A DNA stretch of 64,000 bases from a virus. Taxonomy: Duplodnaviria > Caudoviricetes. The notes below the pieces were generated by a model. The model saw nothing but the letters and a program-made list of their open reading frames with translations, did no database searches and was not told the DNA's origin. Shown here one piece after another: positions 56,046-60,588 of the stretch. The stretch's first letter is position 1; each line of letters begins with the position of its first letter. The DNA is taken from positions 1 through 64,000 of the IMG/VR virus record IMGVR_UViG_3300020460_000013; one strand, given 5' to 3'. A program made the position numbers and the translations under genes.

Positions 56046-56618
56046 ATGACAGAATTAATTGAAGGTATACTAAAGAAAACTGGTGGTAAAGATAGATCAA
56101 TTCGTTGGTTTCGTGAGAAAGTCAAAGAGTTGGGTGAAGTACCACCACAAAGACTTATTCGTGAAGGAATAGTTACAGCCAGACCTACGTTTGGTACTAT
56201 GAACTTTTTTATGTATAGTCCTAAGAATAAAGACAATGTTGACATACTACCATATTATGATAGATTTCCTTTAGTCATGCCCATTGAACAATATAACAAT
56301 GGTTTTCTAGGTTTAAACTTTCACTACCTATCCATACCCATGAGATTAAAACTTCTAAACATCATTAGTGAATATGCAAGTAATGATAAGTTAGATGAAA
56401 CTACTAGAATAAGATTAACATGGAATAGAGTAAAAAGAAATCCAATTGTAAAACCTACAGTAAAAAGATATCTTGCAGATCATGTAAGAACTGCATTTCG
56501 TAGAATTAATGCAGATGAAATGATGGTTGCAGTTTTATTACCTGTGCAAAGATTTGTAAGAGCAACTGAAACAAAAGTTTATGCAGACTCAAGAATGTCT
56601 GCAAATAGGAGAGGATAA
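56046..56618 (+). CDS. gp2: DNA end protector gp2
   Basis: LPYYDRFPLV, FLGLNFHYL, VKRYL..HV. Confidence 0.93.
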   Translation: MTELIEGILKKTGGKDRSIRWFREKVKELGEVPPQRLIREGIVTARPTFGTMNFFMYSPKNKDNVDILPYYDRFPLVMPIEQYNNGFLGLNFHYLSIPMRLKLLNIISEYASNDKLDETTRIRLTWNRVKRNPIVKPTVKRYLADHVRTAFRRINADEMMVAVLLPVQRFVRATETKVYADSRMSANRRG

Positions 56619-57262
56619 TGGCTGCACTAGATGAATTTATTGCAAGTTTTAGTAAGTATGGTGGACACGCACTTGCAAATAGATTTGAAGTAAAAATAAC
56701 ATCACCACCAGCGATAAGAGATCCTAACGCAGATAAACACGTATCATTTAGAGTTGAAGCGTTCACCATGCCAGGTAAAAACATAAGAACTGTTACAAAT
56801 GAAACAGTATATGGCCCAACTTATGAAATGGCTCAAGGATTGACATATGCAGAAGATATAAGTATGACATTTTTTCTATCAGCAGAACATTTTGAAAGAC
56901 AGTATTTTCTAAAATGGCAAGATCTTGTTGTTAAACCAAATAATTACAATCTAGAATATTATAATGAATATGTTACACCAATAGAAGTTTTTCAATTGGG
57001 AAAAAATGGTTTACCTCTGGCTGGTCTTAGACTAAATGAGTGTTTTCCAAAAACAGTTGGTGCAATAGAGTTCAGTGCTCAAAACATGGACATTGCAAGA
57101 CAAGAAGTTTCTTTTGTTTTCAAAGATTTTGTTTTTATAGATGCAGATGGAAAAGTAATGGATAATAGTGATAATAGAAAATTTGCAACTACGAATGCAC
57201 CCATAACTAAAGCTGGGCCTAAACCAACAAATCTTGGAACATCACAAATTCCATATCGTTAA
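56618..57262 (+). CDS. gp54: Baseplate tail-tube initiator gp54 (gp19-like fold)
   Basis: A..NRFEV.I..P, YYNEY..I.VFQL, L.E.FPKT. Confidence 0.82.
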   Translation: MAALDEFIASFSKYGGHALANRFEVKITSPPAIRDPNADKHVSFRVEAFTMPGKNIRTVTNETVYGPTYEMAQGLTYAEDISMTFFLSAEHFERQYFLKWQDLVVKPNNYNLEYYNEYVTPIEVFQLGKNGLPLAGLRLNECFPKTVGAIEFSAQNMDIARQEVSFVFKDFVFIDADGKVMDNSDNRKFATTNAPITKAGPKPTNLGTSQIPYR

Positions 57263-57283
57263 ATTATAGGAGAAAATTAAATT

Positions 57284-57988
57284 ATGGCGTTACCAAAGTT
57301 AGCAACCGCTAAATATGAATTGACATTACCCTCTACAGGACAGAAAGTAGAGTTCAGACCCTTTCTTGTAAAAGAAGAAAAAATGTTAATGTTAGCACAA
57401 CAAGAAGGAAGTCAACAATCTTTAATACGTGCAGTACAGGATCTTATTGATGCGTGTACGTTTGGTAAGTTAGATTCAAAAAAATTACCAACATTTGATA
57501 TAGAGTATGTATTTTTACAGATTAGATGTAAGTCTATTGGAGAAACAGCTACTGTCACAGTAATTTGTCCAGATGATGAAGAAACAAAAGTAAAAGTAGA
57601 TGTAAATCTATCAGAAGTGCAATGTGTTAAAGACAAGAATCATACTAACGATATAAAAATTAGTGATGATGTAGGAATAATATTTGATTATCCAGAAATA
57701 AGTAAAGTTGTAAAAATCACAAGTGGAAAAAATGATGCAGCTGCAACTTTTGATGTTATTAAAACTTGTGTTAATCAAATATATGATACAACAAATGTGT
57801 ATACTAGAAATGACATAGAGGATAAAGATTTAGATGATTTTATTGAATCAATGTCACATGAACAATTTATGAAAGTGCAAAGTTTTTTTGAAACTATGCC
57901 TAAAGTGAAACATAAAATAACTGTAAAGAATCCTAAAACTGAAGTTGTAAGTGATTTAACATTAGAAGGACTACAAGATTTTTTCTAG
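57284..57988 (+). CDS. gp26: Baseplate hub assembly chaperone gp26
   Basis: MALPK..Y.L.LPS..FRPFLVKEEK, DIEY.FLQIR.KS.GE, LEGLQDFF. Confidence 0.92.
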   Translation: MALPKLATAKYELTLPSTGQKVEFRPFLVKEEKMLMLAQQEGSQQSLIRAVQDLIDACTFGKLDSKKLPTFDIEYVFLQIRCKSIGETATVTVICPDDEETKVKVDVNLSEVQCVKDKNHTNDIKISDDVGIIFDYPEISKVVKITSGKNDAAATFDVIKTCVNQIYDTTNVYTRNDIEDKDLDDFIESMSHEQFMKVQSFFETMPKVKHKITVKNPKTEVVSDLTLEGLQDFF

Positions 57989-58182
57989 TAGCCCTCTCTC
58001 ATAATACGTTGGAAAACTATTATCAATTAAATTTCCAACTTATGCAACATCACAAGTATTCTTTAACAGAACTAGAATATATGATGCCATGGGAGAGGGA
58101 GATATACACTAAATTACTTCTTCAATGGTTAGATGATGAAAAAACCGCTGAAAGACAAGCGAAAGCAGATGGAAAAAGATAA
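57985..58182 (+). CDS. gp51: gp51-like baseplate hub assembly catalyst in the -1 frame of gp26
   Basis: LVALSHNTLENYYQLNFQLMQHHKYSLTELEYMMPWEREIY...; no good RBS/start of its own. Not in the ORF track. Confidence 0.85.
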   Translation, partial: LVALSHNTLENYYQLNFQLMQHHKYSLTELEYMMPWEREIYTKLLLQWLDDEKTAERQAKADGKR

Positions 58183-58201
58183 ATAGAACAAGGAGAACAC
58201 T

Positions 58202-58324
58202 ATGGATTGTACTTGTAATAATAAATGTAAAAAATGCAATCATGAATGTCATTGTGAAAAACAATGTGAAGAATGTGTTAATGATGTTTGTACTGGTTGC
58301 GAATGTGATAATTGTAACTGTTAG
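58202..58324 (+). CDS. Metallothionein-like peptide (40 aa, 13 Cys)
   Basis: MDCTCNNKCKKCNHECHCEKQCEECVNDVCTGCECDNCNC; AGGAGA RBS. Not in the ORF track. Confidence 0.75.
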   Translation: MDCTCNNKCKKCNHECHCEKQCEECVNDVCTGCECDNCNC

Positions 58325-58377: not shown

Positions 58378-58704
58378 ATGGCTGCACAAAAGAAATTAGA
58401 AAAAGGTTCACAATATGCAGATTTTGATGTGGACGGCGATGGAATAGTAAGTGATGAGGAAATTGAGATGAGCAAAGAAATGATGAGATTAGAGAATGAA
58501 GATAAAAAGGCCGATGCACAACGTAACATGGCGTGGTTTGCATTGTTTGGTATGTTGTTGTATCCTTTTTCAGTAGTTCTTGCAGAGTGGATTGGATTAG
58601 ATAAAGCGAGTGGTATACTAGGTGATATGGCTCCAACATATTTTGTATCAGTTGCAGCCATAGTCGCAGCTTTCTATGCAAAAGAAACCTTTGCGAAAAA
58701 ATAG
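58378..58704 (+). CDS. EF-hand-like loop plus two-TM membrane protein (108 aa)
   Basis: DVDGDGIVSDEE followed by two hydrophobic helices; GAGGA RBS before ATG 58378. Confidence 0.75.
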   Translation: MAAQKKLEKGSQYADFDVDGDGIVSDEEIEMSKEMMRLENEDKKADAQRNMAWFALFGMLLYPFSVVLAEWIGLDKASGILGDMAPTYFVSVAAIVAAFYAKETFAKK

Positions 58705-58713
58705 GACAGAGAA

Positions 58714-60588
58714 ATGGTAGAAGTAAGTTTTGGTGGCGCTAAAGATTTCAAAACCTTAGTTTCAGAACAACAAGCAAACAATAAAGGTCAAGAAGGACTT
58801 TTGAAAGTATTAGAAGATATATCTGATACTCAAAATCAAATGGCCCAAGCACAAGGTGTTGAACTGCAAGACAAAAACAAAACTGATGCAAAAGAAACAG
58901 AAGATAAAAGAGAACAACTGTCAATATTTAAAGTTATAAAAAAAGGTATCTTTAGTGTTACCAGTGGTGTAGGTAATCTAACTGGTATTATAGAAAAAAG
59001 TGCATTAGATTCTGCAAAAAAAGCAGGTACTAGTCTTTTAGGTATTGCAAAAAAGTTCTTGTTTGGTGGTGCTCTAATTGCATTATTAGGGTTTCTGGAT
59101 AGTGAGGAATGGCCCAAGATAACAGAAAAAGCACTTGCAATTGCAGATGGTATAAAAAAGTTTGTTTTAAGTCCTTTTTGGCCTGCACTAAAAGATTTTG
59201 TATTTTCACCATCATGGGAAGAATTAAAAACTTTATTTAGTGATTATACTGTTGAAATGGGAACAATAAGTGCAGTTGTAGGTACTTGGGCGATAGTTAA
59301 AATAGTTGGTATCGTAACAAAACTTGGTGCAGCTTTTACTGCAATCGCTGCTGGTCTAACTGCGATTGGTGGAGTCATAGGATTAGGTGCAGCTGCTACT
59401 GGTGCAGTTATCGTTGCAATAGTAGCAGGAATTTTGTTAACTGCAAAAGGATTGTATGATGCATTTAAAAGTTTTATGGATACTTGGAAAGAAACTGGTA
59501 GTATTATGGAAGCGATAAAACAAGCTGGTATAGAATTTTATTCTACTATCATAGGACTTCCACTTGATTTATTAAAAGATCTAACGTCTTATCTCTTAAA
59601 TGCACTTGGATTTGAAGAGATAGCTGCAAAACTTGATAGTTTTTCTTTTGAGGATATTATCAATGGATTTCTACAAAATGTAAGTGATTTTATTAGTAAT
59701 ATGTTTACTGCAGCCATAGCTGCATTTACTCCATCAGATGCATTTATTGAAAGAATAACTGGTATATATGATGACCTTGTAGGATTTTTTACCTCTATAC
59801 CAGACACAGTAGGTCAAAAAATTGAAGATATAAGAAGTTTCTTTGCAAACCTAAATCTTTTTGGTAGTATTAGAGAGTTCTTTGAAAACCTAGATCTTTT
59901 TGGTGATATTAGAGAGTTCTTTGCTAACTTAGATATTTTTGGTAGTTTACGAACTTTTTTAACCACATTTGACCCATTTAAAGATGTAAGAGATGTATTA
60001 GCTAACTTAAAACTACCAGAACTTCCAGACATAAGTGAATTGTTTGAAAAGACAGTAAAAAAAGTTACAGATTTCTTTGGTGGTTTATTTGATATAAATG
60101 TTAAAGATATTGCAAGAGCAGTTATACCAGACTTTTTAGAGGGGTACATACCATTTTTGAAAAATGATACACCAGTTGAAGAAACAGTTCAAGAACCAGC
60201 TGATGTTGAATTAGAAGAATTAGTAAAAACACCAACTGATGAACAAAAAAGGATTCAAGTTCAAACAGAAATACAAGAAGCAAAAGATAGAATTGCAAGA
60301 TCAGAGTCTGGTGAAAATGTTTACAAAGGTCTTGATTACAAAGGAAGAAATCAAGATAGAAAACTTGTCGAACAATTAACTACAGAGTTAAAAACACTAT
60401 TAGGTAGTGCAGTTGCACAAGCAAATAATGAACTTGCAGAAGAAAAAAGAACTGGTGGTGGTAGTCCAATAATTACTAATAATAATGTTGTAAATAATAA
60501 TAATGTAAGTGGTGGTGGTTCTGGTGGCCCAGCTGTTCCTTATCCTGTTAGAGATTTAACCATTCCTAATTTTACATTTCCTATTTAA
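58714..60588 (+). CDS. Probable tape measure protein (gp29 equivalent, 624 aa)
   Basis: Helical, hydrophobic G/A-rich segment, aromatic periodic repeats, N-rich C-terminus; downstream of gp26/gp51. Confidence 0.65.
   Translation: MVEVSFGGAKDFKTLVSEQQANNKGQEGLLKVLEDISDTQNQMAQAQGVELQDKNKTDAKETEDKREQLSIFKVIKKGIFSVTSGVGNLTGIIEKSALDSAKKAGTSLLGIAKKFLFGGALIALLGFLDSEEWPKITEKALAIADGIKKFVLSPFWPALKDFVFSPSWEELKTLFSDYTVEMGTISAVVGTWAIVKIVGIVTKLGAAFTAIAAGLTAIGGVIGLGAAATGAVIVAIVAGILLTAKGLYDAFKSFMDTWKETGSIMEAIKQAGIEFYSTIIGLPLDLLKDLTSYLLNALGFEEIAAKLDSFSFEDIINGFLQNVSDFISNMFTAAIAAFTPSDAFIERITGIYDDLVGFFTSIPDTVGQKIEDIRSFFANLNLFGSIREFFENLDLFGDIREFFANLDIFGSLRTFLTTFDPFKDVRDVLANLKLPELPDISELFEKTVKKVTDFFGGLFDINVKDIARAVIPDFLEGYIPFLKNDTPVEETVQEPADVELEELVKTPTDEQKRIQVQTEIQEAKDRIARSESGENVYKGLDYKGRNQDRKLVEQLTTELKTLLGSAVAQANNELAEEKRTGGGSPIITNNNVVNNNNVSGGGSGGPAVPYPVRDLTIPNFTFPI
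59833..59949 (+). repeat. 39-bp (13-aa) tandem repeat x3 in the tape measure candidate
   Basis: RSFFANLNLFGSI / REFFENLDLFGDI / REFFANLDIFGSL. Confidence 0.85.

Follow-up and report, generated by a model that had tools for sequence, protein, structure and literature searches.

Results

A gp26-like gene and its overlapping −1 frame

The window analysed here is a stretch of 64,000 nucleotides from an uncultured marine T4-like phage (record IMGVR_UViG_3300020460_000013, 63% complete). A tube-like protein is encoded at 56618–57262. The window also carries a gp26-like gene (57284–57988; Table 1) whose product of 234 amino acids matches PF12322 (T4_baseplate) with an E-value of 2.2e-65 (residues 9–234 on profile positions 2–218/219) and phrog_150 with an E-value of 2.3e-71; an AF2 model of the protein has a pLDDT of 93. 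The 3′ end of the gene reads GAT TTT TTC TAG, with GAT at 57977–57979 and TAG at 57986–57988, and a second TAG (57989–57991) lies directly behind the first. The heptamer T_TTT_TTC, in the X_XXY_YYZ phase, can be read directly at 57979–57985, immediately before the stop codon, just as an earlier note on this DNA had described it.

The same note had claimed that the −1 frame encodes a gp51 motif and lacks a usable start codon, and both statements hold. This frame is closed by TGA at 57952–57954, opens at 57955 and ends with TAA at 58180–58182. The extension behind the heptamer matches phrog_634 (E 1.9e-27, residues 8–73) and also positions 225–276 of the phrog_150 profile (E 1.6e-6), continuing the profile that gp26 itself matches. 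A tblastn search with the extension returned 542 phage records, in which matches begin at residue 2. The first candidate starts in the window are TTG at 58009 (codon 9) and ATG at 58042 (codon 20), neither of which is preceded by a purine-rich Shine-Dalgarno sequence (SD), whereas the neighbouring genes have AGGAG before 57284, AAGGAG before 58202 and GAGG before 58378. Slippage at the heptamer would join ..GLQDFF to LVALSHNTLENYY.., and the products computed from the sequence have 234 and 234 + 65 = 299 amino acids, the latter from 57284–57985 joined to the extension. The predicted junction peptide of the window is ..LEGLQDFFLVALSHNTLENYY...

Table 1. Coordinates of the features at the gp26/gp51 locus within the window
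Feature	Position	Strand	Basis
Shine-Dalgarno AGGAG of the gp26 gene	57268..57272	+	sequence; 11 nt before ATG 57284
gp26-like gene, zero frame, baseplate-hub assembly chaperone family	57284..57988	+	ORF; PF12322, phrog_150
SD-like AGAAGGA, possible dnaX-type upstream stimulator	57964..57970	+	sequence; 8 nt upstream of heptamer
Slippery heptamer T_TTT_TTC (X_XXY_YYZ), site of predicted −1 shift	57979..57985	+	sequence; conserved in relatives
−1 extension, 65 codons + TAA, homologous to T4 gp51 C-terminal helical domain	57985..58182	+	translation, profiles, tblastn, T4 gp51 alignment
Zero-frame stops TAG TAG, also the 6-nt heptamer–stem spacer	57986..57991	+	sequence
5′ arm of long-range stem, CCCUCUCUCAU, extension codons 3–6, A-L-S-H	57992..58002	+	folding, codon and consensus-structure tests
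3′ arm of long-range stem, AUGGGAGAGGG, extension codons 35–39, P-W-E-R-E	58089..58099	+	folding, codon and consensus-structure tests
Tape-measure-like gene (gp29 position), presumed chaperone client	58714..60588	+	ORF; several tape-measure PHROGs

The heptamer and the frame relation are conserved

The earlier note had made its reading depend on whether homologues keep the heptamer and the relation between the two frames. Both are kept in all 266 evaluable loci, which comprise the window, 7 GenBank phages, 234 IMG/VR loci and 24 metagenome loci, and which span several phage families: Kyanoviridae, relatives of pelagi- and methylophages, and KVP40-like, phiM7-like and pf16-like phages. The pattern NNT_TTT_TTN occurs in the same phase in 266/266. 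Among the first 242 loci, 199 are distinct, with a gp26 GC content of 27–55%. The codon before the T-run may be AGT, GAT, AAT, TCT, GCT, ACT or CAT, encoding six different amino acids, and ends in T every time. The last base of the heptamer is C in 147 of the distinct loci, T in 38, A in 13 and G in one, so the encoded residue switches between phenylalanine and leucine whilst the T-run is kept. A zero-frame stop lies within 0–3 codons of the heptamer in 171/199 distinct loci. The extension is found in the −1 frame in every related locus that reaches far enough, and an HMM of it identified it in that frame in 152/152 evaluable loci of the second set.

The combination of the gp26 heptamer with a long −1 extension is more than chance in the window. 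A slippery heptamer occurs within the last 5 codons of 2 of the 64 ORFs of at least 100 amino acids, and only the gp26 ORF has a long −1 extension behind it (65 codons, vs 10 in the other ORF). Extension codons 1–19, which precede the ATG chosen in annotations, have entropies of 0.98, 0.70 and 1.38 at codon positions 1, 2 and 3, compared with 0.89, 0.62 and 1.44 for gp26, and residues H6, L9, N16 and F17 of the extension are nearly invariant. Judged by this periodicity, the codons directly behind the slip site are under protein-coding (purifying) selection.

A large protein database also holds singleton ORFs of 291–300 amino acids with the exact predicted junction in frame (FFLIALSH, FFRIALSH, FFRVALSH). 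We set these aside as evidence: the nearest relatives of one such ORF are all of the −1 type, so the singletons are most simply explained as one-base errors in the length of the T-run or as rare variants.

Candidate stimulators of the probable slip

The pairing of CCCTCTCTCAT (57992–58002) with ATGGGAGAGGG (58089–58099) proposed in the earlier note is borne out as an 11-bp stem with one G-U pair that begins 6 nt past the heptamer. It closes the minimum free energy fold (−35.7 kcal/mol, z = −5.2, 0/200 shuffles as good), and for the window and its clade the spacing falls within the 5–9 nt expected of a dnaX-type signal. In synonymous resampling of the window sequence, 11 pairs are reached with P = 0.0035, and for the clade the pairs sum to 337, whereas 2000 synonymous resamplings average 254 and do not go above 281. 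The clade seldom uses the codons found in the stem arms (GCC 3%, CTC 1%, AGG 7%). For the 34 sequences of the clade no consensus structure other than this stem emerges, and in it pair 18/117 is U-A in 17 and C-G in 13; on the tree this compensatory change reduces to a single event or two. The stem arms also encode the conserved peptide motifs ALSH and PWERE.

The earlier note had suggested covariation of the stem across gp26 homologues as a check. Within the window's clade the rare codons and the single compensatory pair speak for the stem, which is not universal. A KVP40-like phage has a stem of different sequence at the same positions; in the cyanophages the stem is not preserved, their clade keeping 5–8 of the 11 pairs. 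Over all 70 sequences the pairing of 74.2% is barely above the 72.2% of a shuffled control, and once phylogeny was controlled for, the clades taken together gave no significant covariation (5 independent pairs, sign test p = 1). A scan of 57800–58300 against Rfam gave no match.

Upstream of the heptamer, an SD-like 4-mer is found at −18 to −6 in 183/199 distinct loci. Its position overlaps that of an (E/K/R)-Gly motif, which is conserved and which T4 gp26 shares. At the conserved glycine under this element GGG and GGA make up 48% of codons, compared with 32% elsewhere, a modest enrichment.

Relation to T4 gp26 and gp51

The earlier note regarded T4 genes 26 and 51 as separate, and they are indeed divergently transcribed; the −1 ORF of the window, however, matches only the C-terminal ~50 residues of T4 gp51, the remainder of which is a gp26-family domain. 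T4 gp51 matches PF12322 over residues 1–201 (E 3.9e-52) and phrog_150 over residues 3–248, whereas T4 gp26 spans positions 14–235 of the phrog_150 profile only. In the alignment, the last residues of T4 gp26 (..RGLKEFFEL) fall at the slip site of the window; the T4 gp51 sequence passes this point in frame and goes on into the extension, with which its residues ~200–249 align. BLASTP of T4 gp51 (16–244) against the virtual long form (24–279) gives an E-value of 3e-9 across the junction. The C-terminal part of a T4-type gp51 model consists of helices at 208–221, 226–230 and 234–248 (pLDDT 92–94). At the position of the slip site T4 gene 26 reads GAG TTC TTT GAG: the heptamer is broken and there is no T-run.

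T4 has two PF12322 genes. A single one is present in the window record and in Melnitz, P-SSM2, phi-pp2 and phiM7; the last four genomes are complete, whilst the window record stands at 63% completeness and this phage might carry another member of the family in the missing part. The T4 proteins gp26 and gp51 are hub assembly chaperones, both of them necessary for the hub to be assembled, and gp51, though required, is absent from the particle (Leiman et al., 2010; PMC3004832). The GenBank record of Acinetobacter phage Octan names its T4-type gp51 a ‘tape measure protein assembly chaperone’.

Predicted fold and the downstream tape-measure gene

Among 48,161 PDB representatives, the best three matches to the gp26 model are 3fgx (Z 7.5), 2ob9 (Z 7.5), the HK97 tail assembly chaperone (rmsd 3.8 Å over 84 residues), and 3klu (Z 7.0), which is YqbN; these scores are borderline, as a Z under 8 can reflect a common arrangement. 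All three fall on gp26 residues 1–95, and the next hit has a Z of 5.0. With the full-length T4-type gp51 model the chaperone-fold match was not reproduced, because the C-terminal helices of this model took up the hit list. Foldseek of the gp26 model against the PDB found nothing, and a search of the PDB by sequence returned no solved structure of gp26 or gp51. When all 58 gp26 rows were scanned against Pfam, PF12322 and sporadic zinc-ribbon hits came up but no chaperone family, and hhalign of gp26 against HK97 gp13 gave no link (probability 0.3%).

The tape-measure-like gene downstream matches phrog_58 (E 7e-8), phrog_991, phrog_1272 and phrog_305; IMG/VR contains just two close relatives of it. 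Two small ORFs occupy the 532 nt between the end of the extension at 58182 and the start of this gene at 58714; in HK97, too, gp13/14 and H are separated by a small gene.

Discussion

Considering these data together, a −1 frameshift at TTTTTTC very probably yields proteins of 234 and 299 residues from this locus. The majority of ribosomes would end at the TAG at 57986, producing the short form. In a minority, the two tRNA-Phe paired with UUU-UUC of the U_UUU_UUC heptamer would move one base back, and these ribosomes would read 65 further codons in the −1 frame to give a long form with a small helical ‘gp51’ domain. The 11-bp stem 6 nt downstream and the adjacent zero-frame stop are probable aids to the slip, and the SD-like AGAAGGA 8 nt upstream is a possible one. 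We infer that the slipping is done by ribosomes rather than by RNA polymerase, and what we say of slip efficiency and of the stimulators is meant in the same sense. On the comparative evidence, the gp26-like gene is with high probability decoded in two ways by a −1 ribosomal slip, as a one-gene equivalent of T4 gp26 (short form) and gp51 (long form) and a proposed counterpart of the G/GT genes.

The same genes could also be separate, with gp51 made as an independent peptide of 57 amino acids from the TTG at 58009, or of 46 from the ATG at 58042, and no fusion formed; ribosomes terminating at the gp26 stop might then reinitiate. In many GenBank and RefSeq records of relatives a ‘baseplate hub assembly catalyst’ does appear as an ORF of its own, ribosomal slippage being annotated at this locus in none of the phage records inspected, and a methionine is common at extension codon 19 or 20. 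P-SSM2 has an ATG four codons past the slip site, directly behind the gp26 stop. However, the 19 codons before the common methionine are conserved as protein, and homologues share no conserved start: the position of their first ATG ranges over codons 3–34, and in 10/71 loci this ATG lies past half the domain. No SD-preceded start occurs within the first 45 extension codons in 49/71 loci, nor at either candidate in the window, where the SDs of the neighbouring genes are strong. Independent initiation, which we regard as very unlikely, would also leave unexplained both the invariant in-phase T-run behind a variable amino acid and the in-frame fusion of the gp51 domain to a gp26-like body in T4. 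Still less credible is a decaying, non-functional remnant or a sequencing artefact beside a 234-residue protein that alone matters. The conservation data contradict such a reading: independent samples and cultured, viable phages alike retain the arrangement, in 266 loci altogether, and purifying selection acts on the −1 frame.

RNA polymerase, rather than the ribosome, might slip on the T6 run, adding one U, so that an unshifted ribosome would make the same long product. The conserved element is a homopolymer run, the protein is identical under either mechanism, the run is T7 in 38/199 distinct loci, and the in-frame-junction database ORFs (P0003, P0010, P0011 and P0023) point to one-base changes in the run, at least in assemblies. 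Efficient transcriptional slippage in bacteria requires runs of about 8–9 or more, as in the A9 of Thermus dnaX and in IS elements, whereas most of the loci have a run of only 6. The X_XXY_YYZ phase, invariant here, is needed for a ribosomal slip and not for a slip by polymerase, and a structured element 6 nt downstream and a zero-frame stop adjoin the site. We consider transcriptional slippage very unlikely and retain the ribosomal −1 shift as the preferred explanation.

Lambda gpG/gpGT reportedly arise by a −1 frameshift that is conserved among tail assembly chaperone genes (Levin, 1993; Xu, Hendrix and Duda, 2004). The same kind of frameshift produces HK97 gp13/gp14 and P2 E/E+E′, the latter with the slip site TTTTTTG, and Mu is another phage with a frameshift of this type. 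As in lambda, the heptamer in the window lies near the end of the upstream ORF, the −1 extension has no start of its own, the predicted short and long forms share an N-terminal domain, the gene lies upstream of the tape measure on the same strand, and the T4 equivalents are not found in the virion. The predicted N-terminal fold of gp26 is closest to that of the solved HK97 chaperone, at the borderline Z of 7.5. The position before the tape measure, the short/long logic with a shared N-terminus and the predicted fold together suggest a T4-group counterpart of lambda G/GT. The analogy drawn in the earlier note gains strength from T4, where gp51 and gp26 correspond to the long and short forms, from the gene count (one vs two) and from the N-terminal fold resemblance, and the gp26/gp51 pair may by this analogy act on the tape measure as a G/GT-like chaperone. 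There are differences: no sequence or profile similarity to G/GT is detectable, two small ORFs precede the window's tape measure, the gp26 body is larger (234 amino acids) with extra beta/zinc-ribbon-like and helical parts, and the extension is short (65 amino acids). The T4 proteins are moreover described as baseplate-hub chaperones and not as chaperones of tube polymerisation.

The possible three-part layout, with an SD-like element 8 nt upstream, a heptamer and a stem 6 nt downstream, resembles that of E. coli dnaX, in which A_AAA_AAG is accompanied by an upstream SD-like element and a downstream stem-loop. Unlike the local dnaX hairpin, the stem in the window pairs over a long range, with 86 nt in the loop that it closes, and the SD-like element is inseparable from a conserved Glu/Lys-Gly peptide motif. 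The shift also has the opposite outcome, a shorter product in dnaX and a longer predicted product here.

T4 gp26 (208 amino acids) and gp51 (249 amino acids) belong to the same PF12322/phrog_150 family as the window gene, gp26 being the counterpart of the short form and gp51 having the same body with the C-terminal helical domain, as in the long form. In T4 they are encoded by two divergent paralogous genes with ~20% identity and no T-run, whereas the window has one gene and a predicted recoding signal; the N-terminal 234 residues would hence be identical in both predicted products and their ratio would be set by translation. We found no report of a frameshift at gp26/gp51 in the open full-text literature, the scope of which included PMC5009743, PMC3004832, PMC9024508, PMC5587285, PMC11915804 and PMC11821841; an earlier description in a subscription journal is possible.

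Atkins et al. (2016; PMC5009743) name T4 as the exception to the tail-chaperone frameshift that long-tailed phages otherwise conserve. A frameshift at gp26/gp51 in most of the T4 superfamily would fill this gap, with T4 itself making the same two products from two genes. On balance we lean slightly towards the wider view that gp26/gp51 is the missing G/GT chaperone of the whole T4 superfamily, ancestrally a single frameshift gene that was resolved into two paralogues on the branch of T4 proper. If this is true, cyanophages, pelagiphages and KVP40-, phiM12- and pf16-like phages keep the ancestral frameshift, T4 gene 26 corresponds to G and gene 51 to GT, and a short/long chaperone pair would be universal in long-tailed phages. 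The ‘catalytic’ gp51 would then be the rare long form, through which gp29, the tape measure, is linked to hub or tube. The finding would offer gp26 and gp51 a concrete function, as a chaperone pair for the tape measure or hub made at a set ratio, and would correct the annotation of several hundred phage genomes in which the extension is either left without annotation or begun at an arbitrary internal start. It may also provide a case from nature in which gene duplication took the place of a recoding signal, or a recoding signal that of a duplication.

Anatomy of the gp26/gp51 locus

The gp26-family gene ends in a heptamer at which tandem slippage would shift ribosomes into the -1 frame, where the reading CTA GTA GCC CTC TCT CAT... 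continues the chain as ..GLQDFF-LVALSHNTLENYY.. to give a product of 299 aa. The 65-codon extension matches phrog_634 'baseplate hub assembly catalyst' (E 1.9e-27) and also the gp26 profile phrog_150 at positions 225-276 of 282 (E 1.6e-6), a first sign that some family members hold both parts in one chain. The earliest start codons inside it, TTG 58009 and ATG 58042, both lack a Shine-Dalgarno (SD) sequence; the SDs of the flanking genes are strong. Every element read from the sequence in the earlier note, namely the heptamer, the open -1 frame and the start codons without SD, was found where described. Among the window's 64 ORFs of 100 aa or longer, two end in a slippery heptamer, and of these only the gp26 gene has a long -1 continuation.

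Coordinates of the gp26/gp51 locus and its downstream neighbours
Feature	Position	Strand	Remarks
gp26-family gene	57284-57988	+	234 aa; PF12322 E 2.2e-65, phrog_150 E 2.3e-71
Shine-Dalgarno AGGAG of gp26 gene	57268-72	+	read in sequence
Slippery heptamer T_TTT_TTC, X_XXY_YYZ phase	57979-57985	+	gene end reads GAT TTT TTC TAG TAG
-1 frame ORF	opens 57955 after TGA 57952-54, closes TAA 58180-82	+	translation
40-aa ORF, 13 Cys (CxC, CxxC spacing)	58202-58324	+	AAGGAG SD, strong; between gp26/51 gene and tape measure
108-aa ORF	58378-58704	+	directly upstream of tape measure
Tape-measure gene	58714-60588	+	13-residue repeats at about 59830-60025

The source record is a 101-kb IMG/VR virus, 63% complete, and relatives of the window include Methylophilales phage Melnitz and the Pelagibacter phages Mosig and HTVC008M (Kyanoviridae-like marine T4-like myophages). 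The local gene order runs from a DNA end protector through a tail-tube-like protein, gp26/51, the Cys-rich ORF and the 108-aa ORF to a 624-aa tape-measure-like protein, identified by several tape-measure PHROGs and with only two close relatives in IMG/VR. The latter carries a hydrophobic Gly/Ala-rich stretch (residues ~185-245) and five tandem repeats, IRSFFANLNLFGS, IREFFENLDLFGD, IREFFANLDIFGS, LRTFLTTFDPFKD and VRDVLANLKLPEL. Pfam and PHROG searches gave no match for the Cys-rich ORF and no family match for the 108-aa ORF, which has a canonical EF-hand calcium-binding loop, DVDGDGIVSDEE, at residues 16-27 and, beyond it, two hydrophobic segments.

Conservation of the proposed slip site and coding character of the -1 frame

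Homologous loci were taken from GenBank (Melnitz, ACG-2014i, P-RSM1, P-SSM2, KVP40-like phi-pp2, Sinorhizobium phiM7 and Pseudomonas pf16), from IMG/VR with four different gp26 queries, and from JGI, ENA and Tara metagenomes. Where the gp26 frame ends, all 266 evaluable loci share the pattern NNT_TTT_TTN in identical phase, bearing out the predicted conservation of TTTTTT(C/T) and of the frame relation, except that the last base can also be A or G (C 147, T 38, A 13 and G 1 among 199 distinct sequences). Across these 199 the preceding codon is AGT, GAT, AAT, TCT, GCT, ACT or CAT, six amino acids but always ending in T, and the first Phe codon of the heptamer is always TTT, against 74% elsewhere in these genes. 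The residue at the last codon alternates between Phe and Leu with the T-run unchanged, and the GC content of the gp26 genes ranges from 27 to 55%. Selection here acts on the nucleotide run itself and not on a peptide. The zero frame meets a stop 0-3 codons later in 171/199 distinct loci. The extension HMM matched in the -1 frame at all 152 evaluable loci of a second set, and tblastn with the extension matched 542 phage records; in 502 of these the match takes in at least 80% of the query, beginning with residue 2 directly at the slip site, where it overlaps the end annotated for gp26. In the locus of Vibrio phage phi-pp2 (positions 656-1504 of that locus) the gp26 body is 282 aa long, with an acidic insertion of ~45 residues, and retains GAT TTT TTC.

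Two other routes to a gp51-like product can be considered. A small gp51 protein might be initiated separately, and start codons do occur within the extension. The absence of an SD-preceded start described earlier holds in the window, and the relatives have no conserved one: among 71 distinct loci the first ATG ranges from codon 3 to codon 34, and 49 have no SD-preceded start within the first 45 codons. Extension codons 1-19, all upstream of the Met usually picked by annotators, have the entropy pattern of coding sequence in the -1 frame (0.98/0.70/1.38 at codon positions 1/2/3, compared with 0.89/0.62/1.44 for gp26), and residues H6, L9, N16 and F17 are near-invariant in these 71 sequences. 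Independent initiation thus cannot explain what is conserved, and it is contradicted by the in-phase T-run, by coding before any start and by the link to T4 gp51. Transcriptional slippage on the T-run would produce the same protein, but is disfavoured by the shortness of the run (6 in most loci), its invariant codon phase and the structure downstream.

Four database ORFs of 291-300 aa (P0003, P0010, P0011 and P0023), all singletons, join gp26 body and extension in one frame with the junction exactly as predicted. The likeliest explanation for them is a one-base length error or a rare variant in the T-run, since the -1 arrangement is what the closest relatives of P0023 show. A large protein database attaches the Pfam accession PF28602.1 to the gp51-like extension; a scan with a Pfam copy lacking that accession gave no match.

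Candidate stimulators of the proposed slip

The MFE fold of the window's locus (z = -5.2) is closed by an 11-bp stem with one G-U pair (57992-58002 with 58089-58099) that begins six nucleotides 3′ of the heptamer. Separate predictions recover this stem in most members of the non-cyanophage marine clade, and RNAalifold gives it as the sole consensus structure for the clade's 34 sequences. Because both arms encode conserved peptides (ALSH and PWERE), significance was assessed by resampling synonymous codons with the clade's own usage: the window's 11 pairs gave P = 0.0035, and the clade total of 337 pairs exceeded all 2000 resamplings (mean 254, maximum 281). The arms use codons rare in the clade (GCC 3%, CTC 1%, AGG 7%). 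The covariation looked for was found at one pair, 18/117, which is U-A in 17 and C-G in 13 of the 34 sequences with both sites synonymous (Leu CTY with Glu GAR), but this traces to one or two tree events and the all-clade statistics are weak. The stem proposed earlier is therefore present in the window and supported in its clade, but not kept in cyanophages, which retain 5-8 of the 11 pairs and have assorted local hairpins instead; it is a credible candidate for a clade-specific rather than universal stimulator. In phi-pp2 a long-range helix of unrelated sequence lies at the same codons. Upstream, an SD-like AGAAGGA 8 nt before the heptamer has similar counterparts in 183/199 loci, and is inseparable from a conserved Gly motif.

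Relation to T4 gp26 and gp51

T4 genes 26 and 51 are separate, as the earlier note held, and divergently transcribed. PF12322 matches T4 gp51 (249 aa) too, over residues 1-201 (E 3.9e-52), and this protein spans phrog_150 positions 13-280, whereas gp26 (208 aa) spans positions 14-235 only. In a MAFFT alignment the gp26 terminus ..RGLKEFFEL shares a column with the window slip site ..EGLQDFF, while gp51 runs on in frame along the -1 extension, which, with the phrog_634 match, upholds the assignment of a gp51 motif to that frame. BLASTP aligned T4 gp51 16-244 with residues 24-279 of the virtual long form across the junction (E 3e-9). Neither T4 gene has a slippery run, gene 26 reading GAG TTC TTT GAG at the slip position. 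Each complete frameshift-type genome (Melnitz, P-SSM2, phi-pp2 and phiM7) has one PF12322 gene, against two in T4; the in-frame long form was found in 1375 Straboviridae-type records. The alignment, profile spans and gene counts together indicate that T4 obtains from two paralogous genes, ~20% identical, what the window obtains from one gene and a proposed frameshift. In Acinetobacter phage Octan (MT409116.1) the T4-type gp51 homologue bears the product name 'tape measure protein assembly chaperone'; that role had thus been assigned to the long form by at least one annotator.

Discussion

The lambda-type G/GT tail assembly chaperones are likewise a short and a long product of a -1 frameshift. 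An AlphaFold2 model of the window gp26 from a 58-row alignment (pLDDT 93, pTM 0.86) had no Foldseek match in the PDB. The top three matches of an exhaustive VIA-align search, 3fgx (Z 7.5), 2ob9 (Z 7.5) and 3klu (YqbN, Z 7.0), all cover model residues 1-95 in their alignments and lead the next match by two Z units; 2ob9 is 'bacteriophage HK97 tail assembly chaperone' (rmsd 3.8 Å, 84/104 residues). This is the fold family forecast by the G/GT hypothesis, at Z values below the tool's caution line. Since, in addition, the match list of a full-length T4-type gp51 model (pLDDT 94.5) was filled by its C-terminal helical hairpin, and sequence and profile comparison of the gp26 family with tail assembly chaperone families found no link, homology to G is likely but unproven. 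The functional analogy rests on position, the two-product logic, the borderline fold match, the T4 genetics, in which gp26 and gp51 are both required for hub assembly, and the fact that particles lack gp51 (PMC3004832).

The mechanism itself is of a known kind. A 2016 review of recoding (PMC5009743) described the G-T frameshift as broadly conserved among long-tailed phages, 'except T4', and we found no published report or annotation of a gp26/gp51 frameshift in open-access literature and records. The interest of the finding is high because such a frameshift would close the named T4 exception among long-tailed phages and assign to T4 gp26 and gp51 a function open to testing.
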